A stretch of 63,970 nucleotides of DNA, filler included, from Dimargaris cristalligena (lineage: Eukaryota): the NCBI GenBank assembly GCA_003614675.1. It is 8 parts of 8 records of this genome, joined end to end, with 100 filler letters (N's around TTAATTAATTAA, not from the genome) between each part and the next. Parts side by side here need not be neighbours in the genome. Positions count along the whole stretch, not along the records: positions 16,059 to 23,977 come from ML003374.1; positions 24,078 to 31,985 come from ML003375.1; 6 more parts are not named here. One strand, given 5' to 3'. The translations under genes and the position numbers were made by a program. Positions 7,936-38,786 of the stretch are shown in pieces (position 1 is the stretch's first letter; each line of letters opens with the position of its first letter). The notes below the pieces were generated by a model that saw nothing but the letters and a program-made list of their open reading frames with translations, did no database searches and had not been told where the DNA came from.

Positions 7936-8035
7936 NNNNNNNNNNNNNNNNNNNNNNNNNNNNNNNNNNNNNNNNNNNNTTAATTAATTAANNNNNNNNN
8001 NNNNNNNNNNNNNNNNNNNNNNNNNNNNNNNNNNN
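7936..8035. other. Artificial contig linker (N run-TTAATTAATTAA-N run). Same linker at 15959-16058, 23978-24077, 31986-32085, 39988-40087, 47985-48084 and 55983-56082
   Basis: Identical 100-bp spacers carrying stops in all six frames, spaced about 8 kb apart. Confidence 0.98.
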
Positions 8036-9320
8036 TTCTCTGCCATTGTCCTGTGGGTCTTCCTCCCTCAGATAGGAGGTACTGTGGGAGAGATCGGCCT
8101 CCATCCTATGGGGGGGGAGAGGCCTCTTCTGGTTGCAATATTAAACCCGCCAGAGTGGCGAATTTACAACCATATATCCATGACATTAATTAATAAATTG
8201 ATACATGTAGCGTTATGGATATGATACAAACTACACTGCAACTAATCCTGGTGTCCGGGCCCCAGTGTACGCTAAACTACCTGGTTTTCCAGAGATATAG
8301 ACTTGCCATACCCCCACCCTAGCCAGTTTGGAATCCATTAAGCATGGTTAGCGATCCATTTAGCTAGCCAGGCTCAATTACCGAGCAAGGCCAATCCCCC
8401 TCCCTCTCCACACGTACTTTAGCCTTATTTGCATACCCCACCCCATCCCTTTCTGAGGCATTCAGTGCCAACACTCACACTTCCCTGTGGACTCACTATG
8501 GATTTCCCTAGCACGTCTCTCCACTAATTAGGTTGGTATTGTGATTTACCAGGCAGGAAATAGGTAGAGTTTTTTGGTGGGGAAGTTATTTAGGTGGGAG
8601 GTTCTGAATCTGCCGCATGTGGTTTTTATTGACAAGCTGAGATACTAAGAAAAAGGGAGCTCGGGGAGCCCTGGACAGCCCTCACCCCTCCACCTTGCCT
8701 ACTTGGCGAACCAGACTGGGTACAATTGCATTTAGAAACCGCGGCGATCCTTCATTGCCATATTCCATCCTCCCCACTTAGTAATATGGGAGAGATCCCT
8801 GTCTTTTCTGGCTATAATCCGCTTTTACATTACTCAGTGTGGTAGTGGTAGTGGTGATATTGGAACAGACGCCCACTGATAATATTTATGCAGGGCCTCA
8901 GGGCCATCCCAACCCGCCTTTGGCATTTGTTCAACTGGCCTAGTGTGAGAGGAAAGGGGGACGGGTACAGTCTCCCTGGTCCTTGTTCAATGTGGTGGGA
9001 GCCGTCGATCTCATGTTTCTAAGTCTCGACAGTCAGTTACAATGTGCTGTGGGGCTATCAAAATGGAATGGATGGCCCAGGTTTAATAGTGTGTACAAAA
9101 ATTAAAGCCATTAGTGCCGTTTAGTTTGATATTACGGACCTCTTGGGTCTTAGTGCTCAATAGGAGGTGGGGATGTATAAAGTGTAACATGTTCCTCGCG
9201 AATAATTAGGGAAGCACTCCACAATACCCACTTTCCTCTTCCCATTGACCTGGTTTGGTTCCTAGTTAATATCTACATACTACACTGTTATATACGAGTG
9301 GACTTATAATAATATTCACC

Positions 9321-10640
9321 ATGCGATTCACTTTCACTTTGGCTAGCCTTGCTCAGCTGAGCTTGGTCCTTACCAACATGAGCACCACCTCAGCCGTAGC
9401 CGAACCGCTTTGCTCCATGTACTGTGGACCGGGCGCTACTCTGATTCAATACGAGACCACCACCAGCTACGTGGACACCACGACCACTCTGACCTACACC
9501 ACGACCACTGGCAAACCCTTCGCCGCCACTACCCAGTATAGTACCACGACGTATTGGACGGCCTTCTGGAATGGCGCCACCCTCACCACGACGGTGGGGG
9601 GCGGACCGACCACCACCACCACCAAAACGGTGACACCCACCGTTACCACCACAGCTACCGCGACGGCCCAGGCTACCGTAACCAGCACATCCACGGCCTT
9701 CTCCACCCAAACTGTTGCGAAAACGGTGACTTCCACATTCAACGCAACCACCCAGACTACCAAGACAGTGACGGTGACCGGTGCCCCTTCTACAATCACC
9801 AAAACGGCAACTAAGATCGTGACTATGACCCCCATTACAACTACTTCGACTACTCCGGCTGTGACGACCACCCCGATCAGCGCGACTTCGACTACGCCGG
9901 TTGTAATTACCACAAGCACCACTTCGATCACCCCGGTCCCAACTACCACTAGTACCACTTCGGTTACTCCAGTCGCAACTACTACTAGCACGACCCCGGC
10001 TGTGCCTACCACCAGCACTACTTCGACTACTCCGACCGTAACTATCACTAGTACTACCCCGGCTGTGACCACCTCTAGCACCACCTCAGTCACCCCAGTC
10101 GTAAGCATCACTAGCACCACTCCAGCTGTGACTACCACCAGCACTACCTCGACCACCCCAGTCGTGACTACCACTAGTACCACCCCGGCTGTGACTACCA
10201 CCAGCATTACTTCGATCACTCCGGTTGACAGCACCACCAGTACTACCTCTATTACCCCCGTTGATACCACCACAAGCACCACTTCGACCACCCCGGCCGA
10301 AACCACCACCAGTGCCACCTCGACTACTCCGGTAGACTCCACCACCAGTATGACCGCAACCACCACCTCGGCAGCCCCTTCGGCCACCTGGACCAATGAT
10401 TTCCACCAGGTGTATATTGTCCAATTTGACGGCCAATACGGTACCACCCAGGGCACGACTTCCCGCAACAATTTCTTCAATACCATCAAGAATTGGGACA
10501 TTTACTACAGCGTGACGACCAACTACACCGTCCTGATCAACGGCGTGGCCATTGATTTCTACGATGACTACTATGGCCCGGCGTCCATGATTACCGGTGT
10601 CACTAAAATGACCCCCGAAATGACCGGTGGAGTATCTTAG
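9321..10640 (+). CDS. Secreted Thr-rich mucin-like protein with a C-terminal peptidase inhibitor I9-like domain
   Basis: Signal peptide; TTSTTP(V/A)V repeats; C-terminal YIVQF...Y..LINGVAI...GVTKMTP resembles subtilisin propeptides. Confidence 0.7.
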   Translation: MRFTFTLASLAQLSLVLTNMSTTSAVAEPLCSMYCGPGATLIQYETTTSYVDTTTTLTYTTTTGKPFAATTQYSTTTYWTAFWNGATLTTTVGGGPTTTTTKTVTPTVTTTATATAQATVTSTSTAFSTQTVAKTVTSTFNATTQTTKTVTVTGAPSTITKTATKIVTMTPITTTSTTPAVTTTPISATSTTPVVITTSTTSITPVPTTTSTTSVTPVATTTSTTPAVPTTSTTSTTPTVTITSTTPAVTTSSTTSVTPVVSITSTTPAVTTTSTTSTTPVVTTTSTTPAVTTTSITSITPVDSTTSTTSITPVDTTTSTTSTTPAETTTSATSTTPVDSTTSMTATTTSAAPSATWTNDFHQVYIVQFDGQYGTTQGTTSRNNFFNTIKNWDIYYSVTTNYTVLINGVAIDFYDDYYGPASMITGVTKMTPEMTGGVS

Positions 10641-15663: not shown

Positions 15664-16214
15664 CTATGCAGGTAAAAATAGTATATATACCCAGGCGGCC
15701 GCGAAATAGGAAAAATAATATAGTATCACATTAGTTAGGGAATCGATAATATATACGTGGGAATTACCCCAGAGGAGCATTACGGCACAATAAATATGGG
15801 GCCTGGACCATCAAATATCACCGGATAGAGTAGTGTATTAAACGAATCTACGCCTAGTCGGCCCAGCACTTGAGTAAGAACATGCTCCAAAGGACCGTTC
15901 GGAGTTTGAACCTCGGGGGGGGGGGGGGGGGGTTAACTCCCCTATTGCGGCACTATAANNNNNNNNNNNNNNNNNNNNNNNNNNNNNNNNNNNNNNNNNN
16001 NNTTAATTAATTAANNNNNNNNNNNNNNNNNNNNNNNNNNNNNNNNNNNNNNNNNNNNTCTTTTTATTTAGGCTTCCTCTTTTGAGTATAAATACTCCCC
16101 CTTACTGCCACCTTTTGGAACAGCAAGTTTATCATCACCTTTCCTTTCTTATCATCTAGTTTTTTAAATAAAGTTCAGTTTTCAAGGATTTGATTTCAGT
16201 TCTTTACAGTCCAT

Positions 16215-16730
16215 TAAGAGTCCTGTGGGTAGGCTTCTAATGGTAGGTAGGGTTTAGGCTTAGCTAAGTAATCACTAGCATCAGGTACTAGGTATAGTAC
16301 TAACTAATAAAGGCTAGAGGTAGGTATATATAAGGGATATACAGGGAGTACACTTACTAGTTAGTATAAGGGGGATAAGTATATATAGAGTTTATTAAAT
16401 AAATAAGGGGTAAGTATAAGTTAAGGAATCTAACTAGTTCTAATGGGGCCTAGTTATATATATATATGGGGATAGCTGTAGAGGGGGGTCCTAAGAGAGA
16501 GAGAGAATACTACTAAGATTATAGGATAAGAATAGGCCAGCTGGATAGTTACTAGTAACTGGAAGACTTAGATAGTAATTGGAAGAGACTTTAGATCAGT
16601 ACACCAGTGATTAGTACAAAGATGCAGAGTCTGGGTAGGGGAAATATTTTATATAATGTAGGATAACCCCATGGTCCTAGATGTGGCCATGGGAAAGCTA
16701 ATATGATGTAATAAGTGTTATACCAAGGCC
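16215..16730 (-). repeat. Degenerate interspersed repeat, probably a solo LTR, homologous to 38787-39313
   Basis: Collinear shared blocks (aggcttctaatggtaggt, tactaactaataaaggcta, gtacacttactagt, tatatagagtttatt, ggaagactt) on two different contigs. Confidence 0.7.
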
Positions 16731-17688
16731 TAGTGGACCAGTTGGGTCAGAGATTATGTCATTGGAGGGAGAAGTTAAGGAACTCAGCAGGAGGTTTGAA
16801 TCACTCAAAGGGACGTCATTATTGGCAGGTCATAGCAGAATCAGCAATGGAGTTGTAGAGGTGCTTTGCAGTGAGAAAGGCATTGTGGTTTTTTATAAAT
16901 TTATTTACTGAAAAGAGTAGAGTAATATGAAAATAATAGACTAAGTGAAATATAAGAGAATTGAAAATAATGTGTGAGGAAAATTGGCTAATTTGGGGTT
17001 TATAAGAAATGAGAAATATATATAAAACTATAAACAGCTGGCTGGAGTATAACTTACTTCATTACACTTTACTTGAACTTGGCTTATTCTCCTCCTCAGT
17101 TCAGTCAGGACTCACGGTTTAAATACTTGAGGAAAAAAAAGGAGTCACAGTGGTTTTGGGGAGGTATACAGCAGTCACTCGGTTGGGGTTAGAACAATCA
17201 TTGATGGTGATAAAATTCATTCATAGGAATTAGAACACCAATATATGTAAGTCAACCGGTGACAATCGGAGCTAGGAGACAATATATATATATAAAATGA
17301 TGAAATACCTAAGTAAATGGTGATATAGATCATTGGTAATCATTTCAACCACATAATAAATTGACTGAATTTATCGCCGTTTGATTGATGGATATTTAAA
17401 AATAGTGCAAAGAATTTGATAAAGGAACACAGGATATGATAGTTGTTTTACGTGTTTAAATGGGAGTATTTGACTGATTAAACTGCGGTTTACAGAGATA
17501 AATGGTTTGCAGCTGGTAAAGGAATCAGTCAATCAATTAACCTTTTCAGTTACCTGCACTCTGCAGCACCACAGTCTCGGGGGCTTAAACTAAAAACACG
17601 GGGTATTCTATAAAAGTAATAGGTAAAAAAAATATGAATGCTGTGAATAGTTCAGCAAATATAAATGTAGACTAAAATAGTTAAAGTT

Positions 17689-19479
17689 TTACATAGTGGG
17701 GACAATTGGTTTAAAGTAAAGACGTAAATGAACTCCGGTGATAGGATTGACATAATGTGCTCCATCGAGTCCATTGATGACATAAACATTGGGGTAGGGT
17801 TTTTCGCTGACTGTGTAGGGTCCAATCCAATGGTCATGGAGCTTTCCCTCAACTTTGGTTTGTCAAAAATTGCGCAACAAAACCATGTCACCAACGTCAA
17901 TGGTAGTTTTGGGGATGAAGTAATGCTGATCAAAATAGCGACGATTCTTTTCGCAAGATCTGTCTAAATCCAGGCCAGCTTTCTCATGAACCCAAGAATT
18001 CTGGATTAATTGGATGGTACGACAGGCTAAGAGATCGGCGGTAGATATGTTCTGTGACCAGGGCAGGGATACCCAGGTTTTATCCTGAATATCGAGTGGC
18101 AGAACACAGTCCTGTCCATAGATGAGCTGGTATGGACTCTGACCAGTTGTCGACTTAATGGTGATACGGTCGGCCCATAATGTGGCATGCAATAATTCGG
18201 GCCATACTTCCGCTTGGTTATGGACTAATTTACGCAAACAACTGATTAGATCACGATGACCACGCTCAATCATGCCATTCAGCTGGGGGTGGTTTGTGGT
18301 GGTGAAGACTAGGGGAATACGATCAGCCTTGGCAGCTTGACGAGCAACCTTGGCCCATAACTCACCGTGATTGGCGATAATTTCACGTGGAATACCAAAA
18401 CGAGTAATGATATCTTGGTACAAGAATCGGTACACGTCGATGCTGTACTTGGAGCATAGGGCACGAGCTTCAACCCATCCGCTAAGGTCGTCACGCGCAA
18501 CAATAAGATAATGAAATCGGCTGGCACTAATCGGTAATTCCGTCAGGTCAATACCAATTCAACTGAACAACATGGATCTGATATATGGCTTAAGTGGAAC
18601 ATGAGATCCGCGATAAGGATTACGCTGGCATGTGTCACAAGTTTGAATAACTCGTTCAATATCTTGATACATATTGGGCCAGAATAGACGATTGGAGCAA
18701 AGGCGGTAAGTCGCTGTCACTCCTCAATGGGCTTCTGGGTGTCCGGCGTGTACAGCTATTGTGAGTCTTAGCTGCTAGTTAGGGTCAGAGATTACATGGT
18801 GGGGTATATCAGGCGATGAGGAACGTTGATACAAGAGTCCATCTGCGACTAGGTATTTTTGGGCATCATTTTTGATCTGAAGACACTTATTTTCTGCGGA
18901 AGACTCGGGAAAACGTGCATATTGAAGATAATTAAATATGTCGGTAAACTCACCAGTATCCTGGTTGGATGCTTACTGGACTGCCTCATATCCATGATGG
19001 GAGTAATTATCACGGACGGGGACTACAGCTGTGATTGGAATATCTGAGCTTCCGAATCCTTGATCACGTCGTTCACCTTGAATCTCACTGGATGATACCT
19101 CAACTACCTGGGAAAATGCAACTCTTTCGGGGATTAACTAAGCTATTTTTTCACCGGCCTTGATCTCGAGGGGTCGTTTCGAAAGATTACTGGTAATTAC
19201 CATGATATCACCAGTGTACTCGGGATCGATGACTCCTCCGGCGACGTTTAAGCCTCGCAATGCCCATTTGCTGCGCTCAACGAGACGGAGATAAGTGCCG
19301 GCGGGTGGGGTGCAATGAAGACCGGTAGGTAGACGAACTACATCACCGGGATCAATAATAACATCGGACCAAATGGCAACGTCGAATCCAACGTCGGATG
19401 GATGAGCTTTGGTCGGAATGGGAATTCCAGGCTTCGTACTAACATACATAACACATCCTCGGTTTTGATGAATTTCCAT
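17689..19479 (-). pseudogene. dUTPase-integrase fusion (~596 codons) with six in-frame nonsense codons
   Basis: One frame reads: dUTPase (GFDV, RS, GVIDPEYTG, A*LI, RDQGFGSS), HHCC zinc finger (H...H...FWPNMYQD...CDTC), rve core (IGIDL, ARDDLSGWVEA, RFGIP, HPQLNGMIER), GPY/F region (KL..HWIGPY). Stops at 19138, 18973, 18775, 18724, 18559 and 17863. Confidence 0.9.
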
Positions 19480-19641
19480 CTTTCGGGTCGTTGTTTCTTA
19501 GGGAGTAGTCGATCGTTCCTCCCTCTCTACTTCTACGAAGTTTTTAAAAACCTCGCGATCCCCAGATTCTAAATTAGACGACGGAAATCACTCTCGAGGT
19601 TTTGAAAAGGGCGCGGAGCGACCGGACCCCTCGGGGGTAGG

Positions 19642-19983
19642 TCAACGCGTCTGGGGGTGGATGGTAGTTTTATCGGCCTTAATAGTGTTGATTAGGGAAT
19701 GTAGTCTCTTGACACATAGTTCCATTTCGTCGCGGCTGTATGGTGTATAACCCGTCTGAATCTCGTTTGCATCCAATACGACAAGACCGTCTTTACAGTA
19801 GATGGTTATAGGAGCGATCCGTTGAGTGGGTTCAGATACGCCGCACGCGACTATAGGGAGTTCCTTGTACGTATAGGTGATTCGATGGGGTGCGGGGATT
19901 ATATCGCAGTGAGGTTCGAGTATTCGGGGTAGAGTAATACATATTTTACGAACTATATTCTCATCTATGTCGTCTTGTTCCAT
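19642..19983 (-). CDS. Hypothetical cargo protein (~113 aa)
   Basis: Intact intronless ORF from ATG 19983, divergent from the next ORF across a ~65-bp TATA-rich spacer. Confidence 0.5.
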   Translation of the reverse strand: MEQDDIDENIVRKICITLPRILEPHCDIIPAPHRITYTYKELPIVACGVSEPTQRIAPITIYCKDGLVVLDANEIQTGYTPYSRDEMELCVKRLHSLINTIKADKTTIHPQTR

Positions 19984-20053
19984 CTTTCGCGACAACCACT
20001 GCGGGATATATATCTTTATTTTAGTGTAAATATCAATTGATTATTCCAGATGA

Positions 20054-20972
20054 AATGTCATTCAACAATAGAACCTACACTACACAAGAACAAGCTGATA
20101 ACGACGACCATGCGGGTAGTATTTTCGATACCAGTCCTACGCCTTTGGAACGTCGATACCCTGTACAATACGGATCTCTGGCATCTAATGCGTCACAGGG
20201 TGATTTACATAGGGATGCACGAGGTGTAATGAATATGTATCGACGGGTATTACGAAATAATGACGAGCGGGTGATTAGTGAGGGACCGTATAACGAACAA
20301 ATAGGAGCACTGATGCATATAACATATGAAGACCCGGACAACCAAATGAGTGTGATTGGTAATAGATCTTTAATTCATGTTTCCAGTCAAAGGCGTCCTG
20401 ATTGGAGAGCATACGATAATCAAACACAAGTGGTGGTTGCCGTTGCCGAAAGTAAATCGGGTGCAGAGGATATACGTAGATCCACTACTCAGAGACAATT
20501 GGAGGATTATATGAGTTTGAGTCTACATAATAACAGAGACGCCAATGATAGTGGACGTAGCTCTCCAGTTGCTGGGATATATAACCATGGAAATAACCTA
20601 TATCTATCCGCATTACGCGACGATGGAGATGGTTCTATAGTTCGAAGCGTGAGTTATACGTCGTGGGATATGCGTAATGATGACAATATTGATTCTCTAG
20701 CCCACCAAATGCGATCAGTCAATACGGAGAATATGGCATTATCCAGATAATGTAACCGATGTGAGGATCCTGTATATGGCAATTATGATTATTGTCTTGT
20801 CCATCTATGCCGCCATTCCGATTGTACCAGTGGGACGTATCACAGTGACGGGGAAACCTTTGTATAAATCTATTGTTCTACTCACGGATGCAATAGACAG
20901 CGTTGTAATGACCCTCGGAATGATACATATGGCTCGTACTGTTCAGAAGACTGTTACGAACAATGCCAATGA
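20054..20972 (+). pseudogene. PD-(D/E)xK nuclease-like domain followed by a Cys/His-rich zinc-finger-like tail, interrupted by two TAA codons
   Basis: RRPDW...VVVAVAESK motif. The same frame continues past TAA at 20748 as CNRCEDPVYGNYDYCLVHLCRHSDC...*IYCSTHGCNRQRC...YCSEDC. Confidence 0.55.
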
Positions 20973-21244
20973 GAAATTACTCCTTCGGAGTCGTTTTAAA
21001 ACAGCTCGAGATGCTCTGTACGTCGACGTTCCATAAAATGCAGCGTCAATCATTCGCATCACTCTCGTCTAGGGTGGCTGTAGCCCGTTCAAGAGTCATA
21101 AGAATCTCGAGCAATTTACACAGCCACCGATATGTAAGATGTATTCGGGGTGAACGATTTCCGGAATATCCATAACACCACCATGGAACCGAATCGATAA
21201 GTGGAAATCAAGGACGGAGTCCGCATCAATTGCGACTTTATAAA

Positions 21245-21731
21245 ATGGACTCCTTCGACGTAACCGAATTCACCGGAGATCTAGGTATAGTGCACTACAA
21301 AGTTCTATCATCGTCGCCTGGTCATGTAGTAATCCGATGGTTAGACAAAACAATTAAAATCAAGGCTGCATCCTTACTAAACGAATACATGGGACTGTGC
21401 TACCTGGAGACAGAAAACTTTAGATATTCACCCAGATCCATTTGACATAGTACATGGAAAGCACCCTATTCCTACATTATAATGTCGTATATCGATGGCA
21501 CTCCCTTGAACAAATTGTTGTTAGACCAACCCGATATTCAACAATCTACAGAACCTATTGGATTGTTCTAAACAGCGAATCCGGTTTTTGCACGGGGACC
21601 TATGGCCAGGAAATGTAATGATTAACGACGATCTGGAAGTAATAGGGATTATTGATTGGGAATATGCTGGTCACTACCCCATCAAGTCGGAACTGGTCCC
21701 CTGCCTTACCAGGCCCATGCCTTCCTCATAG
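21245..21731 (+). pseudogene. APH/choline-kinase-like phosphotransferase, disrupted; may extend to about 22031
   Basis: K..NE and IIMSYIDGTPL, then after a frameshift FLHGDLWPGNVMINDDLEVIGIIDWEYAGHYP; TGA at 21443. Confidence 0.8.
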
Positions 21732-23456
21732 ACATTTTACTTTACGGGAGAACGAACTTGCTATCGAACACAATAACGTCACATCACCTTTAGTGGTAAA
21801 GGACAATATCTCTCTATTCCCACATTGTGGGGTTGTACGGAATGGTACTTTTGTCGGTATGGAATATACTGAAGAATATACCCCGCCACCACCGAGGATA
21901 TTATCGAGTCGGGTCGTACAATGGCTACCAACTGGATGTCTAATCTATGCTCTTACTGTTAATTACGCTCAACATTCACTTCGTTCATTCTTTCTAAAAC
22001 GGACTCCGGAGTCGTGACCCCTGCGGGGTAATAGAAATCATGAGAAATATCAGTAGAGACAGTGCATTTCTGGGAGATTACCCACGCTTTCTAGGTCTGC
22101 CCCGTGGGGGCTTATAAAACCTCGAGAGTGATTTCTCGATCGGGCGTCGTTTGCACTTCTCCCTCCTCGGGCAGTATGGAAATGGCCATGATATTGCTGC
22201 TCCCCGAATCAGGGAGGAAAAAAGGTGGGTTTAAATAAAACATTCGGATATAAAGAGTTCTCGGAATATCACTCGAATAGCAACGTCCGTAAATGGATCG
22301 TTCGCCATTAGTAGCCCGTCGGAATCCACCACCGGGTAGGCTACCGTGACCTTGTAGACCGAGTTTGTCAGTATTAGTTACTCTCGGACCTCCCCCTCTA
22401 GTAGAAGATAACAGCGAAGGGGCGCTGGATAAGCTAGGTCTTGACCTAATCGACGATACAGAAACGACTCTCCGGATAGTAGCACGGTCATTCTAGGGTT
22501 CGAAAAATGCTATCCTCTAAATAAGTCAATGAAATCGAGACATACAAGATTCTTCGTAATCATCCTCATCACAATAGACGTAAAATCGTCAGTGGGATAA
22601 AAGCAGCTATAAATCATATTGATCGATTTCGATAGTGTTGGAGATAATAACCCTAAACAAGTAACACGCCAAGTGGTGATCGAGGGTGAGATAGATTGGA
22701 TTTTTAAAATGACTCCCTAAACCCGGAGAGGTATCCTCGCGGTCGCGGTCACTCTGTACCTCGGACTCCGAAGGAGTGCCCATTTAATCCTCCGGATTCG
22801 ATTTCAATGGAATGGCTAGTGGTTCAAAACCTTAAGATTGTTGATCAGGTCATTTGTTGAATCCAGATAGTAAGCTCTTTGACTCGGGGGTACTAGTCCG
22901 TTTTAGAGGCAGTGGAGGGTGTCGTTCCAAGTAGTCGTCGCTGTCATGCTTAATAATCCATAGGATTAAAGCCGACTAACTATGAAGGACTAGGCACCAT
23001 CATCGCCTAGTTCTATCAATGAGGCGCGGGAATTCGGCCTTGTTGAAGGATCAGTGTCCTTCAGCCATTCTTGCCACTCGATTCACATATTCCATATATC
23101 CCCTTCATTATATACCCGTCTATTATTAGTTATCATTTATATTACTATCTAGTAGCATCTTCCAGCATCTTCTATGCTGGTTCGACGTCTTTATCATAAG
23201 TCTGCTCGGCTATATAAAGCTGAGCCAATTCCTATAGTTATTCTTTAGTTAGTTACCATTTATTTCTTACCCCCTTTTCATAGTTAACTCGATCTATTTT
23301 GATATCTCCTCTATTATGATCTATAAAGCGCCCCTCGCATCAATTGCTTGTGTGTTATCTCTTTTAAATTCGTCCAAGGCGTAGCTATTAATTACATCAT
23401 AAATTATTGACTACGACAGTCGCCTCGTCAGAATCAAAGCGTTTTAAATAGCAACG

Positions 23457-23876
23457 ATGTGCACCAACTATATAGTAGTTCATATATGCGGGTATAGCAA
23501 TGCGCGACTAGATTATTGTCCTGAATCTAAATTGGACAGTGACGGAAATCGGACTGCTTGTGTACCAGTAAATGAGAATCGCAGATCTACCGGGGTAGTA
23601 TGTTCTAGAGAAGGCTGTGACCACGCCCCGCATCATAATCGCGGAGAACACACAGGAACATCCCCGGAACTTACGCGAGCCATTGGTAGTTATTGGGGTA
23701 AAAGTGGTAGCCATACTACTATATTACGCAGCGACTCGGGTACTACATGCTCTGGGAGTGTAGATAGTCAAGGAAATATGTATTGCTTTGGATGCAACGT
23801 CTGGCATATTGGGTGCAATGCGTGTGATAAATGTAAAGGCCTGAAGACGTATTGCGGCCACGATGGCTACCCGTGA
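23457..23876 (+). CDS. Cys/His-rich small protein, putative zinc-binding cargo
   Basis: Intact 139-aa ORF with an MC...H.CG start and C-terminal CxxC pairs; ends 10 bp before the right TIR. Confidence 0.6.
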   Translation: MCTNYIVVHICGYSNARLDYCPESKLDSDGNRTACVPVNENRRSTGVVCSREGCDHAPHHNRGEHTGTSPELTRAIGSYWGKSGSHTTILRSDSGTTCSGSVDSQGNMYCFGCNVWHIGCNACDKCKGLKTYCGHDGYP

Positions 23877-25244
23877 TCACGCGCATCTGTACTGCTGCAT
23901 AGTGCAGGATTAAGGGAAGCTTATTTTTATCAATTTCTTTATCGGTTTTATCAAGACCGGATCATTACTATATATAGNNNNNNNNNNNNNNNNNNNNNNN
24001 NNNNNNNNNNNNNNNNNNNNNTTAATTAATTAANNNNNNNNNNNNNNNNNNNNNNNNNNNNNNNNNNNNNNNNNNNNTAAACAGCTTGCCTTTATTACTA
24101 TTTGTTATTTTCCTTAGTGCTACGATTATGTAATAAACTGCCCTCGTAAATAAAGAATGAATAGTTGAATAAGTGTAGAGTAGCTTCATTAGTAAATGGA
24201 TGACCCGAATTAAAGAACCCTTACTGTATGTAGCGGGCTCTACCAGCCACAGCTCCATCTAGTGGCATTGTGCCCTGCCAGCCCGGGTTCTCCATATATC
24301 TTACTGTATTAACAGGGCGTATAGGGAGGCCATGAGATGGTTTATAGAAACGAATTGGCTTTTATTAAAGGAATGATCCGGGGGCCCAGGGGACTCCAGT
24401 AATTGCAGTAAACCAAGGGTGGGGATTGTATTAGGCCCTTAAGAGGAGTATATATATAAATATAGAAGGTACCTGTCTCACAATATGCCAAGTGGTAATT
24501 GAAAAGGTATCCATCTGCCCTAGTTAGACCGTCCCATAGCCTAAGCCAGACCTGAAAATCACATTGCCATTGGTTTTAGATTTATCTGGTTATTACCGGA
24601 AATAATAATCTTTATTTGTTTTGAATACATGGGTACTGTAATCTACCTCTAGAAATTACTCTGACCAAGTTTCAGATTAATTGGAGTACTTTAAATGCTG
24701 TTTTTACTACCTTAAAGTGAACTTTATGCATGCATGTGTGTTTTCAGCTTTTGCACCCTCTGAAAAAAGGTAAAGAGTGCCGCAATTGCAATTCTAATCA
24801 CGTAGACCCCCCCAAAACCCCCCCTAATAAACCCAAAAAAGTGGTTTTTATTGCCATCAGACTAGTTTTTTTTGTTTTATCAAAATCCCTGTACCTACTG
24901 TGATTCTGATCAATCTTGATATCAATTTGACTATACTTACATGGTTATAGCCTAATTGAGATAATGGGATAGAAATCCATGGTATTGTATATATTTAATG
25001 TATTGGTTCACATTGATCCTAGAAACATCAAATAATGACCCACAAAATGGCTGCAGACCTTTTTCGGCTGAACCGACCTTTTTAACCATGAGAAGGGGGG
25101 TCTGAAGGAGGGGGGGGTATGTATAGGTAACTATATAGGCCCCTCTTCACTGTAGGGCCACCGGGCTGCCTCGGAGGTTGCCTGGGAGGGGAGTGGGTGG
25201 GTGTGCTCACTTGGAGGGGATGGCTTAGGGGGGTCACCAGGGAG

Positions 25245-25312: not shown

Positions 25313-25606
25313 CCTAGGGAGGTCAGTTGGGAGGGGGCAGCCTGGGGAGGTTGTTAGGGAAGGGGATGGCCTGGGGGCCTTAAGCCTAAGCCTGGTGAGG
25401 CTACAATACATGGACCCGGGTATGTCCTTAAACTGCCTTCCTGATGGGCTGGGATGCCCTTAGGGAGAGCTTGAGGCAGCAAGCTAAGCAGTGGCCATTG
25501 AGCTAGTCACTCATTAGGCCACAGCCTAGGGGGGGGATACACACTCCTACCCCCAAGCCAAGGGCCCTGTAGGGCATGAAGAGAGATAGCTGAGGCAGCA
25601 GCTAGT

Positions 25607-26400
25607 TAGGTGGTCTTGGTATAGTAGTGGAGTACTGCCTGAAGTACTATAGTCTTGGAAGGGGGGGATGCATACCCTCTAACCATGTGCTATAGTACTC
25701 CAGGTAGTAGTCCACCTATACTGGGGCTACTTACATAGTAGAGAGGAAGGGATATAGTGTAGGTGGTCTTGGTATAGTAGTGGAGTACTGCCTGGAGTAC
25801 TATAGTTTTGGGAGGGGGGGATGCATACCCTCTAACCATGTACTATAGTAATCCAGGTAGTAGTCTACCTATACTGGGGCTACTTACATAGTAGAGAGGA
25901 AGGGAGATAGTGTAGGTGGTCTTGGTATAGTAGTAGAGTACTGCCTGGAGTAGTATAGTCTTGGGAGGGGGGGATGCATACCCTCTAACCATGTGCTATA
26001 GTACTCTGGGATAGTAGTCTACCTATTCTAGGTCCATTTGCATAGTAGAGAGGAAATATAGTGTGGGGGGTATTAGTATAGTAGGGAATTGCTACTTAGT
26101 AGACCATGACAATGGGAGGGGGGGATGCATACCCTCTAACCATGTGCCGTAGTATACTGAGATAGTAATTCTCTTATACTAGTGCCACCTATATAGTATG
26201 AAGTAAGGGATATTGTTAGGCTCTGAGCTGGTCACTCAGTAGGCTAAATAGATGGGGAGATAGGTGGACTCTCCTCACTATTGCTAGACTACTATGTAGT
26301 AGCAGTCTAGTATAAGGGCAATTGCCAAGTAGGGCAGTTGGTGAGATGGTAAAGTACAACTTAGGGAGGGGGGGATGCATACCCTCTTTCCTATGGCTAG
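25607..26400. repeat. 153-bp tandem repeat: three well-conserved copies plus diverged and partial copies
   Basis: Anchor gatgcataccctct at 25667, 25820, 25973, 26124 and 26374. Confidence 0.88.
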
Positions 26401-27913: not shown

Positions 27914-29764
27914 ATGTCCAAGTCCAACAACCCTTCCAAGTCCACCAAAAAGGCCAGTGGCAAGCCCAAGACCATGTCAGAGGCTGAGTTCATTAAGCTG
28001 ACCCTCATTAAGGCCTGGGTCATGGAAAACAAGCCTACTATCATGTGCCTGAGATGTAATATTATGGGGCATATTACTAACCATGGCGGCAAACGGTTTA
28101 ACTGCACCAGCTGCAACCAGCGCTACCGCAAGGTTGACCTGTGTGCTAGTCGTAATCCAGAGTTATTTCTGGAGCTGGAGGCCAAGTACCCAGATCCCAA
28201 AGGTACCACCAGACAAGCTCCCCCTGCCCAGCCTGCCCCTTTGTTTGCCTTGTCCACAGCAACCAGTCTTGGGGAAGCCCATACTATGGAGGCAGCTTCT
28301 ACCAGGACTGTGTCTACTGAAGTTGTTACCCCTGCCACCCAGTCCCCTGAGCCTCCCACCATGACCACCTCCATTACCCAGGGCAAGCGTCCCCACCTGG
28401 CCTCTCCTGTGCATGCTAGCAAGAGGCATTGTTCCATGCTCAGTCGTCCAGCCATTCCCAACAAGGCAACTTATGCAGAGGTAGTTAGACGTCTGGGGCT
28501 AAAGGGCAAGGACCAGCAGAAGTGTGGCCTATTGGCCTTGCAAAAGCTGCATGCCAAACCCAAGCCTCCCCAGTTTGTCTATGTCCGTGGCATCTCCCGC
28601 ATGCGAATCCGGGAACTCAAGGATATCTTCCGCTCCTTAGGGTTCTACTTACCATCCATTCTCAACATCAGCTTCCTGGGGACTGAGACAGTTGAGTTCC
28701 TGGTGGCTGCATCCTATGCAGTTGTCTTCAAGGGCAAGATTAAGGATGTGGAGCTCACTCTGCAGCCCAACTTTAGCACTGCTGGTACTATGGACCCTGA
28801 TGCCTCCCCGGCCATGAGGGATAGGGTCCAGAAGGCCTTTGTCAAACGGGCCCACAAGATCATTGCTGGCACTAGAAATCCCCTTGTGGCCCAGACCTTT
28901 AGGGATATTCTGGTTAAGAAGAAGCTCTACCACTTCACAGCTCCCCCCCTCCTCTCAGCCCAGGCCATCCCCGCAGCCAGCACCACTGGTCAACCCCCCA
29001 TGTTGTCTGTGGCTATAGCCCAACCAGTCAGTGTGCCTCCCCCCACTCTCTTGCAGCCCCACCAGGACACAGGCATCCCACTGCAGTGTAGTGTGCATAC
29101 CATGTCCCCCTGTGCTTGTAGCCTGCCATCCAATCTACCCAGTGTCCCCCTTGACACTATCCATGAGCCCGAGCTGTCCATGGATATCCCTGGCAGTCCC
29201 TCCAACTCCCCTGGCTCCCCCAGTCCCTACTTTGAGTCCACCAGAGGCCACTCTGAGCCCCCTCACTGGCAAGAACAGGTCATTAGCCCCCTCTGTGGAT
29301 CTGACTCAACCTCAGATATAGCCAGCTCAGATAATTTTATCATGGACTACCTTGCCAACTCCTGCCCTCTCCCAACTCACCAGGCCCAGTTAACCCAGCC
29401 ATCAAGTCCCCCTCTCCCCTGGGGTGATGCTGAGTTGCCCTCAGCTGACTATGATAATTACATGGGTGAGGTGATGGCTACTCCCTCCCCTTTGGTAGCC
29501 CCGGCAAGTCTGACCCAACAGCCAGCTGTACCTGAGCAGGTGTGGCGTATCTGGGATAAGACTAACCATGTTTTTGTCCACCACACTATGAAAGATGTTG
29601 AGATGTGTCATAATGTTTTACAGTATTCCAACCCTCTTAATGGCCAGCCTGTTCCCACTCTTTCTAAACTAATGGCTAATCTAGATAGGCAGGAGACTCA
29701 GGGTGAGATTGAGTATATTAGGTGGATTTGTAGTCAACAAGATGCCCCCCAGTCTCCCCAATGA
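27914..29764 (+). CDS. Non-LTR retrotransposon ORF1
   Basis: 616-aa ORF with CxxC...CxxC and an RRM-like segment (FVYVRGI...), directly upstream of and overlapping the APE-RT ORF. Confidence 0.75.
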   Translation: MSKSNNPSKSTKKASGKPKTMSEAEFIKLTLIKAWVMENKPTIMCLRCNIMGHITNHGGKRFNCTSCNQRYRKVDLCASRNPELFLELEAKYPDPKGTTRQAPPAQPAPLFALSTATSLGEAHTMEAASTRTVSTEVVTPATQSPEPPTMTTSITQGKRPHLASPVHASKRHCSMLSRPAIPNKATYAEVVRRLGLKGKDQQKCGLLALQKLHAKPKPPQFVYVRGISRMRIRELKDIFRSLGFYLPSILNISFLGTETVEFLVAASYAVVFKGKIKDVELTLQPNFSTAGTMDPDASPAMRDRVQKAFVKRAHKIIAGTRNPLVAQTFRDILVKKKLYHFTAPPLLSAQAIPAASTTGQPPMLSVAIAQPVSVPPPTLLQPHQDTGIPLQCSVHTMSPCACSLPSNLPSVPLDTIHEPELSMDIPGSPSNSPGSPSPYFESTRGHSEPPHWQEQVISPLCGSDSTSDIASSDNFIMDYLANSCPLPTHQAQLTQPSSPPLPWGDAELPSADYDNYMGEVMATPSPLVAPASLTQQPAVPEQVWRIWDKTNHVFVHHTMKDVEMCHNVLQYSNPLNGQPVPTLSKLMANLDRQETQGEIEYIRWICSQQDAPQSPQ

Positions 29765-31985
29765 TTCCGTCTACTTTGTCCCTTGCTTACTTTAATGCCC
29801 GTGGTCTTCCCTACTACCAACTTGAGGCCTTTATCCAGTACTACCCAACCCGGTACCATATTATTTTTTTTGCTGAAACCTGGCACTGTGACCGTGAGGC
29901 TGTCCTTCAACACCCCTGGACAGTCTGTTATCCTACTTATGATCCTTCTTCTGTCCCTACCATTGGCCGACTCCCCCATGGTATTCTTTGTATTGCACCT
30001 CCCTCCTTTCATTCTCATATTCAAATCCTGGCTTTTACACCCTTTACCATCTCTGCCCTTGTTTTTGGCCAGCCCATCCATGCTGTATATTTCCCTCCCT
30101 CCATGTCAACTGAGAAGGTGCAGTCTCTATTAGCTATGCCCAGGGGCTGCACCTGCTTACTGGGGGACCTTAATGTTTCAATAAAGCCTTCCAAGTCTGG
30201 CTGGGCTCCCCCTGCCCGTGCTGAAGTGCTCTCAGCTGCCCTGTCCCGTGAACACTTACGTTGGAAGGCCCCTCCCCCTTCCCCAATCTACCATCTTGAC
30301 CATGCCTTTATCCAGGCTGAGCTCGTAGGCCAGGCCCGGGTACACCTTGAGCAGTGCCTAGTCTCCTCTGACCACCCCCTCCTCAGTGTCCAACTCCCTA
30401 CCAAGTCCCCCATATCCCAACCACCTGGCTCTCTCCGGTTCCACATTCACCGTCTCCAACAACCAGTCTACCAACAGGAATTTCAGGCAGCGTACAAGGT
30501 CCTGTGTCCCACCATCTCTGAGGTGATACAGAAGGCCCACCAGGCTATTAAACACAGTGGTCTTGTGACCTTGTCTGAGATTATTGACTTCTTAGACTCT
30601 GTCATTATTGAGGCTATTCTGGCTGCTGCTTCTAGTAGTATTGGGGAGTATGATGCTGGCAAGGTGAGATCCCAGCCTGATCAGTCTATTAAGCACATGG
30701 TCAAGGCAGGGACTGCTGTGGATGCCATCCGGCTGATGAAGTCCCAGCAGCGGGGTATTGCCCAGGCCCCTCTTGCATCCCGGAGTGATATGTCTATTGT
30801 GGATGATGTGCTGGCCTTTTTCACAGAGATGTTTGCTACTCCCACTGCACTGGCCTTCCCCAATAATCTCTACCTAACTGGTACTAATCCACTGGGAATT
30901 CATGTCACGGCTAAGCTCATCCGGCAGCTGGTCCAGCAGTACCCCAAGCACAAGGCCTGTGGTGGTGATGCTATTCATACCCGAATGCTGTATACTTTGT
31001 TGAAGGGACCATTCCCCCACCACCTGGCTGACTTGTTCAACCTCTGCCTCAAGACTGGCTATACCCCTACTAGGTGGAATGAGTCAGTTATTAATCCAAT
31101 TGCCAAAAACCCCCAGGCCAAGCAGATCCATGAGTTCCGGCCCATTGCCCTGACTGTCATCTTTCGGCGGTTGTTTGAGAAGCTTCTCCTCCCAGCTCTT
31201 AAGAATCTTCCCCTGTCCAAGTTCCAGGCTGGTTTCCGGGACAGACAGAGCACTCTGGGCCATGTGTTAGTCTCCCATGACACAGCCCGTGAACCACTTT
31301 ACCATGCCTACTTAGACCTCAAGGCGGCATATGACACAGTACCTATTGAGGGAATGTTATCCAAGTTGGCTGGTAAGGGCTGTCCAAGTGGCCTATACTC
31401 TCTGGTGGTGTCTCTCTTTACCAACTGCCAGTCCCGGGTGGTAGTGAATGGTCAGCTGACACCCTCTATTAATAGGCATCGGGGCCTATTTCAAGGCTCT
31501 CTACTCTCCCCTATTCTTTTTAATATCTTTATTGATGACTTATCAGATGGTCTCCCTATACCTAGTAGGACAGGTGTCCCTCCTATACTGATGTTTGCGG
31601 ATGACTTGAAGCTGCAGTACTCATCAGCTGAACAACTCTCTGCTACTCTAGATAGCTGCCACAAGTGGGCTGAGGCTAACGGAATGCAGTTTAATCCAGC
31701 CAAGTGTGGTGTCCAGTTTCCTAAGGGGGAACCGGATCCGGAGCTCTCTTTGGGCCCAGTGGTATTACCTATTACTCCTACTTACAAGTACCTGGGCTTC
31801 CCCCATACTGGCCAGGGAGTAGACTGGGCTGCTCACCTTCAGAGTAATTTGGCCAAGGCTCAGGCAACCTTTAGGGCCATTAGGTACTCATCCATCCACT
31901 GGGGTCCTGTTATCCGGCTACATGTTCTGAAGCTGATTATTATGCCCCAGTTGGAGTATGGGTTACATTTAGTCATGTATGCCAG
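29761..31985 (+). CDS. Non-LTR retrotransposon ORF2 (APE endonuclease plus reverse transcriptase), 3'-truncated at the contig end
   Basis: APE motifs FNARGL, AETW, GDLN, LDH, SDH; RT motifs KACGGD, FRPIAL, QAGFR, LDLKAAYD, GLFQGSLLSP, FADD, YKYLG. Confidence 0.95.
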
Positions 31986-34398
31986 NNNNNNNNNNNNNNN
32001 NNNNNNNNNNNNNNNNNNNNNNNNNNNNNTTAATTAATTAANNNNNNNNNNNNNNNNNNNNNNNNNNNNNNNNNNNNNNNNNNNNATTGGCTAGGGCTAA
32101 AGTTATACCCATTGGTATAACAAAAACAAAGGTATAAAAGATATAAATGAACTTATAATAGGTTAAAGGAATAGCTGATACTTGTTAATAGAGTACAGCA
32201 AGGGTATAAATGTAATACTCAGAAAAATAATCCAATTAGAAATAAATGTATAATCATTGTATAACCATAACAACTTATAAAAGAGGAAAAATAAATAAGA
32301 CAATGGCAAATACTACTATAGCTGTTTGGCTATATCATAACAAAATGTGTTATGCAACAGCAGGAGAATAATTAAAATAAAAGTTTAAACAGTAATGAAC
32401 ATCTAGTAAAAATCGGCAAAAGAATCAGTTATCTCAAGGGCAAGAAATAGGGTATCAAAGTCTGGTTTATTAAAGATAGGTGATTACCCATTATTTATGT
32501 CAGGAAATAAATCAGGGGGTTAGGGTATTCAGTGGTGGCAGAAAGCAGTAGTTGGTCTTAAAACCATTGTTGGGATAACTACTGGTGGTCCTGGGTCACT
32601 TGATGTGGTTGGCTGGGAAAGTTGGGGATGTCAGTGGTGTCACTGGTTTTGATTGAGTTCTGAACAAGTTTGTTCTAATAAACTCGGTGGCTTAGTTGCT
32701 GGGGACATCATGGGAATATTCAGTACTTGCGGGTTGGGGATTCTTGCAGGAAGACTGGGGGAATCACTGGACCAGTCCTGAGGACGTCCTGGTGACCTGG
32801 GCCTGGGAATAGATGCCACTAAAGTTTGTGGTTCTTGGGGAGGCAGCACAACACCAGTGTTGTGGTGTGGCAGAGTGAGTATAATAGAAATAGCAATAAT
32901 AGGTGTGAATACCTTACAATTAAATTTAAAGATGTAGTAAAGTCAAACCTTAAGAATAACGAAGACAACTGTAGGTAAAACTGCCAGTACAGTTCAGAAG
33001 AATGAAAATAGAGATGCTTTATTAAGAGCTGTGATTCCTGAAGGTATTTATACTTATGAAGTGGTTGAAGTCCAACCTTACATAGTATTACTACTTGAAT
33101 TGATTAATAATAATGAGTTTACAAATATATCTGGCTAATAATGATATCAAATATAAATGTGAGTAGTATTTGATGTATCTCTCACTTGCTATGATATTGC
33201 CAGGCTATAAAATAATAAATCAGAACTTCACTGATAAAAGGATATAAAAATAGAATGCAATTAATAGGGGAATACTGTGGTTTACTATGAATGACTGTGG
33301 TCTCAGGTCCTACCACAATAGAAAAAATTTAAATCATATTATTTTTATTAGCTATTAATAAAAGTGACAGGAGGGCCATAGTTTAATTAGTTAGTTGGGA
33401 ACTAGAATATGTCCTAAAATTGGATATAATGGCCAGACTAACTACCCGCTCTAACCCAGCAAACCTGAGTGGTATTGACAGGTTGCTCGCTTATAATATG
33501 GGAGAGGTGCAGGGCAGCTACGCAATAAATGAAATCTGCTTGAATAGGTTGGGCTTATCAATTTAATATAATGCTCCGGTTTGTTGTATCCTTTTTAAAT
33601 CCCGTTTATAATCCTAACCATACCACACACGGGAATGAAGGAGCAATTACCATTGGAGGCTATCAATACTCACACCAGCAGGCTATATTTGAATCACTCA
33701 AAGGTTCAGGAGGATATTGTTACTCTCTGCTGCCCATTAATCAAATCCTTCGAATTGGACAACTATTTAAATAGCTGTATATCCCTGCACGAATTTATTT
33801 TAATTTTAGGACCGGAAAAGATGAGCTAGTATCCCCTCTACATTATATGCCTAGCTTATTCTTAATCCGCTAGTTATGGCCATCACCTTCATACCACATA
33901 GTGATCAATCAGGTAAAAATAAAAATGTAGTAGGCTTCCCATGCCTTTAATTCGGTAGGTGCTACAACTGTTCAGGTCAACCAGCCTGTATACTCCAAAA
34001 ATTCGAATTATTCGGTAAGTTGGCCTAACTATCGGCTATATGGAGGATAGTTTGTGAATGTGTGGACTGCACTGAGCAGGCCCTGTGAATGGATAAACAC
34101 CAGACTGCTGCCAAAGGGGAGTGGGATTGTGTAAAAGGGTCGAGACTAGGCAGAAAAACAACTATAAACGACCTACAGTTAGCAGAAGTACAGCTACCGC
34201 AGCTCTGTATCAAAAATGGGAGGGTTTGGACCCTGGGTCAAAAAGTGCAATGCACTTAGTCAAGATAAAGCACAATTCGGTATATTATAAGAACCCCGCA
34301 TTCATGCATTGGCCTATATCCACGCCCATGCTGACATCCAAGCCAACACCTGACCCCCCTCCGTCTTACTTGCATGTACACACGAACAGGTGACGCTT

Positions 34399-37055: not shown

Positions 37056-38786
37056 CTAGGTGAGGTGGAAAAGGGAATATGTAATATTAGGTAATATATG
37101 GTATAGGGGAATATCCCAGAACAAGGTGTTAGACCTCGCCGCTTTTATCAAAAGTGACGCTAGAAACTACAACTGCTACGACCAAAATACCTGAGTAGTG
37201 GCATATATCCCAGGAGTAGCCGTATCGTAGCGAAGGAACTCAGATAGCTCAGCTCGTAGGTACTGTGCATCCCAATATTGCCTCATCTTCATGCCCATGT
37301 ATTGCTTCGACTATAACCTACAACTTGGAGAAATCCCCGAAACGAACCCGCTACTAGCTAGTGGTCTTTATAAAACACATGCATATGAAGGCGAAGGAGC
37401 CGCCCGTGCTTGGAAACCTATGGCCAAAATCTCCAAGCCATATAGTTACATTAGACTCAGCAATTACCTTCCTCAGCCGCCAATTCTCCTCTGCGTTTAT
37501 CGACCATGGCGAACTAATGATACTCAAGGCCGGGGACAGGCTAAAGACAAGGGGAAGGAAGGGGTGTGTCGGATTCTTTAATAGAGTGCTGCTAGATGGT
37601 GCGCAGCAGCTAAAGTGCTTGAAATGGAGCACCTGAAGGAAGAGCTTTATAAAAGTGACAACAGTGGAATGAAAGGGACAAGCACGCACAAAAAGTAAAT
37701 GGGAAATAGCATTGAAGAAAAGGCTAATTGGTTGTTTTTTTAAAAAAAATATTAATGAGGTATTAAAAGAGAAGGAGGTTAGTGGGTGGTCGCCATTAAT
37801 AAGCGAAATGTAAGTGTGACCTCTCCTCCCTCCCACAACAGTAAAAGCGCGGAGGACAAGGGAAGGCTTACCATGTGATGTTCCGACCTGCAAATTGGAA
37901 GCTGGGCTAAATAAATAGGCTAAGCATATTTGCACATAGCCAAAAGACCTCACGTAACCCTCCATTTCCTATCACCCACCCATACGCCCAGGCAATGCAA
38001 CTTTCCACAAAACATTATCGTTAATTGATGCCGTCAATGTTTTGTTATTTATTGACGATACTTATTTTGCACAATGGATAGGTCCTCGGTCTATAATAAC
38101 TGAAAAATCGCCATGCATGTGTAAAGAACACGGCATATAATAATTATGGTTGTAAAAAATAGAATCAACTTAATAGGATCGGTTGGTAAAAAGTAATATA
38201 GGGAGAAAGATAGAGAACCAAATTTTTACATGTAATTATTTACATTCTACTTTGGGGAAAGTAATATTGTTACAGGTTTTTTATATTTACCCCCTATTAA
38301 CATAATGAATTTGTAAAAACCAATTCACTCCTCCACCTGAAGGTTGTCCCTTTATGCATCCAAACTTTAAGCCTCCCAATAGTAGGATTGCCCTCCTCCA
38401 CAATTCTCACTGGCCCCTTTCCCAGATGCCAATGTCCCAAGCCAGGCACTGATACATTGGCTATACCTCAGTCCATTTGGGAAAAGCCCACCCCTGCCCT
38501 AAATAGCCCATATCTGCACTTTGGCCCACATAGTCACCAAATATGGCTTCACATTTGTATTGACAGGGCCCAGGGATCTAAGAGGGTTCAGCATGGCCCT
38601 GCTGGATTGTGGAGAACCAGTCCATGATGGTAATGTCAGCCTAAATAACTAGTCCATAGGTGAGTAAGGCTGGGACAGTAACAGTAATAGAGACTGCTCC
38701 ATTGGTAATGTGATATGTAGATACTTTGAGCAAAACATTGTCAGAGGAATATAAATAACTATTACCTAGTTTAACTGCTCTTAGTC

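Follow-up and report, generated by a model that had tools for sequence, protein, structure and literature searches.

A 7919-bp draft contig of the Dimargaris cristalligena genome (assembly GCA_003614675.1) carries a locus that we read, with a probability of about one half, as a dead Gypsy-derived dUTPase-integrase remnant, lying in a foreign-looking segment with orphan and broken genes and flanked by copies of a dispersed repeat in opposite orientations. The window analyzed is a stretch of 63,970 bases made of eight draft contigs (7,888-7,935 bp, in descending order of size), joined by N44-TTAATTAATTAA-N44 linkers at positions 7936-8035, 15959-16058, 23978-24077, 31986-32085, 39988-40087, 47985-48084 and 55983-56082. 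The locus under study lies on the third contig (ML003374.1, 16059-23977), and sequence outside those bounds is unrelated to it; features that span a linker, such as the repeat pairs I1-I3, are artefacts. An earlier note had described the interval 17553-23908 as a transposon bounded by terminal inverted repeats (TIRs), lacking reverse transcriptase (RT) and carrying virus-like cargo genes. The RT-less dUTPase-integrase locus held up on analysis, and its composition is unlike that of the host, whereas the TIR-bounded, cargo-carrying transposon did not hold up: the tests that were feasible gave no support for the interval as a single transposon.

The proposed fusion of a dUTPase to an integrase was borne out by a single minus-strand frame (17689-19497) and by its Pfam domains. 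This frame has a Met codon at 19479 and is interrupted by six in-frame stops (TAG, TAA, TAG, TGA, TGA and TGA) and by no frameshift. The dUTPase domain (19045-19425, minus strand; PF00692, 7.6e-24) is of the trimeric type and complete, with all five motifs recognisable, the Gln codon of motif 4 being TAG; it matched 70 dUTPase sequences of the PDB, the best at 1.3e-19. A linker of about 90 residues separates it from the integrase (17776-18756, minus strand), in which an H2C2 finger (18619-18756), a DDE core (18286-18552) and a Tf2-like GPY/SH3 domain (17776-17892) could be delimited. Integrase_H2C2 was matched at 1.9e-14, while rve (1.1e-3) and SH3_Tf2-1 (1e-2) both fell below the Pfam cut-offs.

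This copy is predicted to be inactive, on account of its six nonsense codons and of the replacement of the second catalytic Asp of the integrase by Asn (ANHG, compared with ADRG in the related protein P0004). Four of the six stops stand opposite a Gln (TAG) or an Arg (TGA) in related proteins, the pattern expected from single C>T changes; three of these were aligned against P0004, and the fourth, in dUTPase motif 4, against a Gln of the related protein P0019. Stop X545 fits an Arg only loosely, and stop X175 falls in an unaligned stretch. An alternative genetic code was rejected as an explanation of the stops, four of the six being placed as C>T changes of CAG or CGA would place them, and two neighbouring genes on the plus strand, open reading frame (ORF) B and an APH-type kinase gene, being broken too, the latter by a frameshift. 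Classical repeat-induced point mutation left no clear signature in the dUTPase-integrase gene, where the observed/expected ratio (o/e) of TpA was 0.80 and thus not raised.

The locus is indeed without RT, as had been claimed. A six-frame Pfam scan of the whole contig matched dUTPase, integrase and APH only, with no RT, RNase H, protease or gag, and tblastn with seven related proteins (six with RT, and P0019, a dUTPase-integrase) gave matches to the integrase only, plus the dUTPase for P0019. This absence covers the 7.9-kb contig, and the 5' side may extend off it. The integrase shares with Ty3/Gypsy elements of the Metaviridae its H2C2 finger, its DDE core and a visible GPY/Tf2-type SH3 domain, and is 40-46% identical to integrases of Gypsy polyproteins with the order RT-RNase H-integrase. 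The nearest database proteins, P0003 (45% identity) and P0004 (40%), align over 72-74% of the query and are both RT-RNase H-integrase proteins; the P0004 alignment starts at query residue 148, just past the dUTPase, and at P0004 residue 581, just past its RNase H. RT/RNase H was also encoded in 63 of 80 metagenome loci encoding relatives of the integrase. Since both its nearest relatives and most of these loci are RT-linked, this is a Ty3/Gypsy-lineage integrase that diverged fairly recently from RT-linked ones. A dUTPase followed by a Gypsy-type integrase in one protein was found in P0019, of metagenomic origin, with L075 as close kin. P0019 is 30% identical to the present locus in the integrase and 34% in the dUTPase, and its linker is about 170 aa longer; the L075 sequence is cut at its dUTPase end. 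Among longer proteins matching residues 1-330 of the dUTPase-integrase we found only a plant dUTPase-containing protein, and no parent with the order RT-RNase H-dUTPase-integrase.

We then examined the inverted repeats said to delimit the element, and their coordinates and 19/22 match were reproduced. The left arm (17553-17574, plus strand, CCTGCACTCTGCAGCACCACAG) begins with (C)TGTGG when read on the minus strand, and the right arm (23887-23908, plus strand, CTGTACTGCTGCATAGTGCAGG) with (C)TGTAC when read on the plus strand; both are 22 bp long, with CCTGCAC as outer ends. When the 7919-bp contig was shuffled in blocks, 2 of 40 shuffles contained one or more inverted pairs matching at 19/22 or above, so that the match is modestly beyond chance for a single contig and weak or unremarkable across the eight contigs scanned. 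One other inverted pair of at least 19/22 is present inside the contig, a perfect 20-mer at 19584-19603 and 22116-22135; the other seven contigs hold three (contigs 2, 4 and 8), all of low complexity or in a tandem array. The degenerate 22-mer had no match in a metagenome scan.

Sequencing data allowed us to follow the arms and the interior separately. The contig is present in five public runs from two studies, with no RNA run among them, and the assembled contigs of four runs (X1, X2, X3 and X5) were aligned to it at 80% likeness or more. In these four runs, run contigs match 16995-18477, 18451-22403, 22375-22969 and 23222-23917 with 0-2 differences. This indicates that the locus is real, and that presence or absence of the locus is not polymorphic among the runs. 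The observations on arm copies and joints that follow come from a small listed part of about 5,000 aligned run-contig records. Among the records listed, an X1 contig aligns to 17513-17546 and then continues as AATTACCTGTACTCTACAGTACCACAGAAG, which by eye is the left arm in a third copy, three transitions setting its 22-mer apart; three of the four changes in this copy are of the CpA>TpA type. The existence of this third copy indicates that the 22-bp inverted match is real homology. It also bears on the suggestion that there is no biological unit here: either chance brought decayed fragments close to one another in a region rich in repeats, or the contig was mis-joined at repeats, the 22-bp match being coincidental. 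About 0.05 inverted pairs of 19/22 are expected per contig and about 0.4 over the eight contigs, and the contig is short and ends in repeats, as this suggestion would have it. However, the third copy and the reproduction of the contig by four runs of two studies make it very improbable.

The read depth of the run contigs further separated the arms from the sequence between them. In X5, the run of most even depth (132-172 for the main record), depth reached 1370 in the left-arm bin (17379-17642), compared with 198-217 beside it, and 4344 in the right-arm bin (23715-23977), compared with 172; left-arm depth was raised in all four runs. The third arm copy is colinear from 17513, that is, 40 bp past the outer edge of the left arm, and has the same outside flank, while just past 17574 the three letters shown are not those of the interior. 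All four main run records end at 23917, and beyond 23928 the run contigs depart from the contig of the window. Among the records listed, a joint 23928->16292 was seen in three of the four runs and a joint 17573->16681 in one run, and these joints connect the arm regions with an unrelated high-copy repeat at the left end of the contig. No target-site duplication (TSD) could be found for either choice of boundary, the flanks reading ...TTCAGTTA up to the left edge and ATTAAGGG... from the right edge onwards. Beyond the 22-mers the likeness of the two sides is weak and runs outward only, and the arms themselves are most strongly conserved at the inner end and weakly at the outer end. Given the raised depth, the outward-continuing third copy, the joints and the lack of a TSD, the arms look like dispersed-repeat ends: the preferred reading is that the 22-mers form the terminus, and the most conserved part, of a dispersed repeat of which two copies face outward.

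In the interior, by contrast with the arms, X5 depth was exactly 168.5 in every bin from 19491 to 21866, so that the supposed cargo has no second copy at 80% likeness or more; X1 and X3 showed near single-copy depth over 17115-22900, and X2 was uneven. Within the interior, extra X5 depth was confined to 17907-19490, and a separate 672-nt record aligned to 17832-18477 with 68-69 differences in three of the four runs. Of the genes here, only the dUTPase-integrase therefore has diverged paralogues, one or two in number; as judged from run-contig depth, the genome contains none for the orphan ORFs or for the broken APH gene. The idea that the 22-bp repeats bound one mobile unit thus fails on a single-copy interior, on multi-copy arms that adjoin other repeats, and on the missing TSD. 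Other copies bounded by the same two ends, which that idea implied, were not among the run-contig records listed, where arm copies adjoin other sequences. The description of compact intronless ORFs enclosed by TIRs was likewise overstated, the window being made of joined draft contigs and the right arm lying only 69 bp short of the contig end at 23977.

Other repeats lie close to the arms. The left end of the contig (16059-17058, no strand assigned) consists of host high-copy repeats that are almost free of CpG, as judged from depth, composition and likeness to another contig. It includes a dispersed repeat (16208-16705), purine-rich and CpG-free, that is 71% identical to 38783-39276 in another contig; this pair has roughly 100-fold run-contig depth and many internal deletion variants. 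A moderately repeated pyrimidine-rich stretch (22923-23450, no strand assigned), identified from the depth table, lies inside the interval; 22947-23051 and 23119-23358 are common to other loci, and a joint 23051->23119 was seen among the records listed. Each arm also contains a 5-bp stem, CTGCA/TGCAG, which in the third copy (X1) is CTGTA/TACAG, two changes that preserve pairing. Both are CpA>TpA changes on opposite strands, for which mutation bias suffices without selection, and the small hairpins within the arms folded no better than shuffles (z of -0.7 and -0.1).

The composition of the segment sets it apart from its host. GC content at third codon positions (GC3) was 0.33-0.46 in all ORFs of the interval, compared with 0.64-0.81 in six host genes and 0.53-0.59 in a host long interspersed element (LINE), and CpG o/e was about 1, compared with 0.19-0.21 in host transposons. 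In 16059-17058 there are 0-1 CpG per 200 bp, an o/e near 0; the switch from CpG-free to CpG-normal sequence occurs at about 17060-17260, 300-500 bp outside the left arm, and the sequence remains CpG-normal through the contig end. The compositional edge therefore does not coincide with the proposed TIR. The segment differs both from host genes and from old host repeats, and no other observation speaks as strongly for a foreign or recent origin, although the lowered GC3 could alternatively result from C>T decay of dead genes. The host codon-usage reference was an intronless beta-tubulin gene (40843-42204, minus strand; GC3 0.80). The host LINE is a LINE-like non-LTR (long terminal repeat) retrotransposon (27914-32037, plus strand) whose ORF1 has 616 aa and whose endonuclease/RT ORF2 continues as far as the contig does; its CpG o/e of 0.19, with TpG+CpA raised to 1.30, suggests cytosine methylation of host repeats.

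Taken as a Gypsy-derived remnant, the locus would have the following history. The integrase descends from the pol gene of a Ty3/Gypsy LTR retrotransposon. To judge from the two protein families, in a live element the dUTPase would keep uracil out of new element DNA and the integrase would insert that DNA. Most likely, a 5'-truncated or rearranged Gypsy-derived element would now lie beside unrelated foreign-looking DNA. The TGTGG at the start of the left arm follows the integrase stop after 115 bp, on the same strand as the integrase, and so sits where a 3' LTR would be predicted to start.

Several observations nevertheless weigh against this history. Upstream of the dUTPase neither the Pfam scan nor tblastn revealed any trace of RT or RNase H on the contig, and no LTR pair, primer-binding site (PBS) or polypurine tract (PPT) is visible on the contig, features which together with the missing gag and protease set the contig apart from a Ty3/Gypsy element. 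The 25 nt that precede TGTGG on the minus strand are not purine-rich; no purine run was seen before TGTGG or TGTAC, no tRNA-complementary TGG... after either arm, and no flanking direct repeats in the contig. In the orientation in which they were first described, the arms also start with TG and finish with CA. The dUTPase fold begins 18 codons after the Met codon, and a stop precedes this Met by 6 codons; the Met, the stop and the palindromic, motif-rich spacer look more like a gene start than a random break. The outward extension of the arms is read from a few of the records listed, and much the same records would be expected from a family with nothing in common but longer TIRs. Finally, a dUTPase accessory domain is known in some fungal Gypsy elements, where its positions are the Pol N-terminus, the Pol C-terminus and between protease and RT (PMC2864245), and in some retroviruses the dUTPase lies 'between RT and IN' (PMC5408684). 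Here it lies directly ahead of the integrase, which is outside the three fungal Gypsy positions reported in the available part of PMC2864245; as far as that part of the source goes, the locus is therefore an unusual variant for a fungal element.

Some of these points suit a different view, in which the locus was an RT-less cut-and-paste element that had captured a Gypsy integrase-dUTPase as its transposase, with the 22-bp repeats as its TIRs, or as the inner portion of longer ones, and with cargo, the present copy being now dead. The inverted match flanks the ORFs and was rarely equalled in shuffles (the 2 of 40 given above); arm sequence recurs in the genome, as that of a repeat family would; RT and RNase H are lacking, and the ORF starts at a Met just ahead of the dUTPase. 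A second inverted repeat is nested inside the first, and a short motif, AAACCTCGMGA, is found in the window only here (3 of 3). There is also a precedent, the available part of PMC2836005 reporting for Ginger elements that Gypsy-like integrases can drive TIR elements. Nonetheless, we consider this view distinctly unlikely. Its interior is single-copy and no TSD is present, the third arm copy is colinear past the outer edge of what would be the terminus, arm conservation is highest inside and weak outside, and the compositional domain runs on past the left arm. In addition, with 40-45% identity to RT-linked integrases, the capture would have to be very recent.

A comparison with Ginger elements, as far as these are described in the available part of PMC2836005, leads in the same direction. 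Ginger1 elements have TIRs of 40-270 bp with TGTNR ends, a 4-bp TSD (CCGG or CCGT) and an OTU or Ulp1 protease domain at the C-terminus of the transposase. The locus resembles Ginger1/2 in its Gypsy-like integrase without RT in cis, its H2C2 finger, its GPY motif (as in Ginger1) and the inverted repeats nearby. It differs from Ginger1 in its arms of 22 bp that match at 19/22 and in outer ends of TGCAC, and from Ginger more generally in lacking CCGG, CCGT or any other TSD, in the absence of OTU or Ulp1 matches in Pfam, and in its single-copy interior. The dUTPase present here is not described for Ginger in that part of the source, and sets the locus apart from the published description. With Polinton/Maverick elements the locus shares a retroviral-type integrase, accompanied by inverted repeats and by further genes within a DNA element. 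However, the six-frame Pfam scan revealed no protein-primed DNA polymerase, capsid, packaging ATPase or protease, and the integrase is of the Gypsy H2C2 and Tf2-SH3 kind, unlike that of Polinton/Maverick. The short arms, the absent TSD and the missing hallmark genes thus agree with the earlier statement that the locus fits neither Ginger, nor Polinton, nor an intact LTR element.

The genes next to the dUTPase-integrase were examined in turn. Orphan ORF A (19642-19983, minus strand, 113 aa) shares its reading frame with the dUTPase-integrase, from which three stops separate it, a coincidence that has a one-in-three chance of arising. Orphan ORF B (20055-20984, plus strand) is intact over 231 aa (20055-20750), then continues in frame across three stops into a Cys-rich tail with a spacing of the CxxC...YCxxHxC type. 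It is followed by an APH/choline-kinase-type kinase pseudogene (21245-21731, plus strand), spread over two frames with stops and at least one frameshift. Its fragment 21525-21731 matches PF01636 at 4.4e-12 over LHGDLWPGN...IDWE, with the catalytic loop HGDxxxxN and the downstream D motif present; the APH-like kinase of the earlier note is thus confirmed, as a broken gene. The translations also showed, as had been stated, Cys-rich sequence in the tail that follows 20055-20750 and in orphan ORF D (23457-23876, plus strand, 139 aa). Gene directions diverge outward from about position 20040. ORF B, with 241 codons from stop to stop, is by our estimate too long to be open by chance, whereas ORFs A and D could be chance openings, 0.3-0.5 such frames being expected per contig.

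ORFs A, B and D had no family match in Pfam, PHROG or NCBIfam. For ORF B, a word-index search scored none of 480 word-sharing candidates, and a full scan of 1.84 billion representatives returned one weak match (E 3e-7, 25% identity), a 3816-aa repeat protein. Single-sequence AlphaFold models were unusable, with a mean predicted confidence (pLDDT) of 31.5 for ORF B and 41.5 for ORF A, and the best ESM Atlas values for ORF D (0.85) and ORF A (0.82) were within the range of shuffled proteins. Scans of IMG/VR with the dUTPase-integrase and with ORFs B, D and A revealed no relatives. The assignment of ORF B to the PD-(D/E)xK-like nucleases is therefore without support: with no family match, a single weak and unrelated match and a pLDDT of 31, the string PDW...ESK by itself is insufficient. 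The same holds for virus-like cargo, no viral or other homologue having been found in PHROGs, in IMG/VR or, the one weak match aside, among the 1.84 billion representatives.

A short module recurs around these genes. A perfect 20-nt motif, AAAACCTCGAGAGTGATTTC, is found on the minus strand at 19584-19603, about 105 nt upstream of the dUTPase-integrase ATG, where it adjoins a CCCCNNNGGGG hairpin. A second, inverted copy is found on the plus strand at 22116-22135, after the APH pseudogene and two CCCCNNNGGGG hairpins. Each copy has a CCCCNNNGGGG hairpin before it, and each is followed within 40-105 nt by ATGGAAAT. The shorter form AAACCTCGMGA occurs three times in the window, each time inside the interval, a count reached in none of 100 shuffles. 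Of the four CCCCNNNGGGG sites in the window, three fall inside the interval, though four sites were reached in 27 of 100 shuffles. Either shared expression signals or a small duplication inside the interval may account for these modules of motif and hairpin. We also considered a large inverted duplication, now decayed, by aligning 17575-19720, reversed, with 21990-23900, and rejected it, the alignment being confined to the region of the 20-nt motif. A further sequence, GGGGGCTTA, is present in two copies in the window, one immediately inside the left arm (17575-17600) and one beside the right 20-nt motif (22100-22120); two matches were obtained in 34 of 100 shuffles, so this pair is possibly due to chance.

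These modules and the composition could also be taken to mean that the locus is part of a larger foreign insertion, virus-derived or horizontally acquired, with its own dUTPase-integrase, orphan genes and promoter- or terminator-like modules, and with ends that lie outside the 22-mers or off the contig. In favour of this are the low GC3 and the CpG o/e of about 1, the orphan ORFs with almost no relatives, the hairpin and 20-nt motif that twice precede an ATG, with three of four CCCCNNNGGGG sites at this locus, and the genes that diverge outward from about 20040. We regard this as unlikely, however. In the six-frame Pfam scan neither capsid, polymerase and packaging proteins nor any other hallmark of a virus turned up, the four proteins had no IMG/VR relatives and no PHROG matches were obtained. 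Moreover, C>T decay could lower GC3, and ORFs A and D are short enough to have opened by chance. A dead Gypsy-derived remnant beside foreign-looking DNA accordingly remains our preferred reading.

The remaining contigs of the window carry eukaryotic, fungus-like genes with few or no introns, among them beta-tubulin, an XPB-type helicase and an eIF3-like subunit, as well as the non-LTR retrotransposon described above and two tRNA genes. A tandem array at 25599-26200 is made of three to four copies of a 153-bp unit that contains an inverted repeat and has GGGGGGGATGCATACCCTCT as its conserved core. Two long repetitive ORFs (9270-10640, plus strand, and 50316-51713, minus strand), one of them Thr/Ser-rich (TTSTTP-type) and the other Pro/Ser/Tyr-rich (PKYE(S/K)P), look like secreted or cell-wall proteins.

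In a bolder picture, which we hold to be rather improbable, an early-diverging, fungus-like genome would harbour a recent element of foreign composition whose sole recombinase is a Gypsy-lineage integrase that lost its RT and acquired an N-terminal dUTPase. This element would move as DNA, carry orphan genes with their own hairpin-motif modules, and have terminal sequence in common with tens of short non-autonomous copies. If true, a fungus would here show a new transition of the Ginger kind, very young, in which a retroelement turned into a DNA element or else into a virus-like one. Should the dUTPase-integrase ever have been expressed alone, without RT, it would offer a fresh example of a retrotransposon integrase becoming a transposase, the step postulated for Ginger, and in that case the divergence between the integrase and its RT-linked relatives would still amount to just about 55-60%. 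For now, the locus is a single dead copy in a draft genome that is fragmented, and a pointer to its paralogues and to the 22-mer repeat family. The difference between CpG-free host transposons and a CpG-normal segment of low GC3 is a useful marker for other foreign or recent DNA in this genome.

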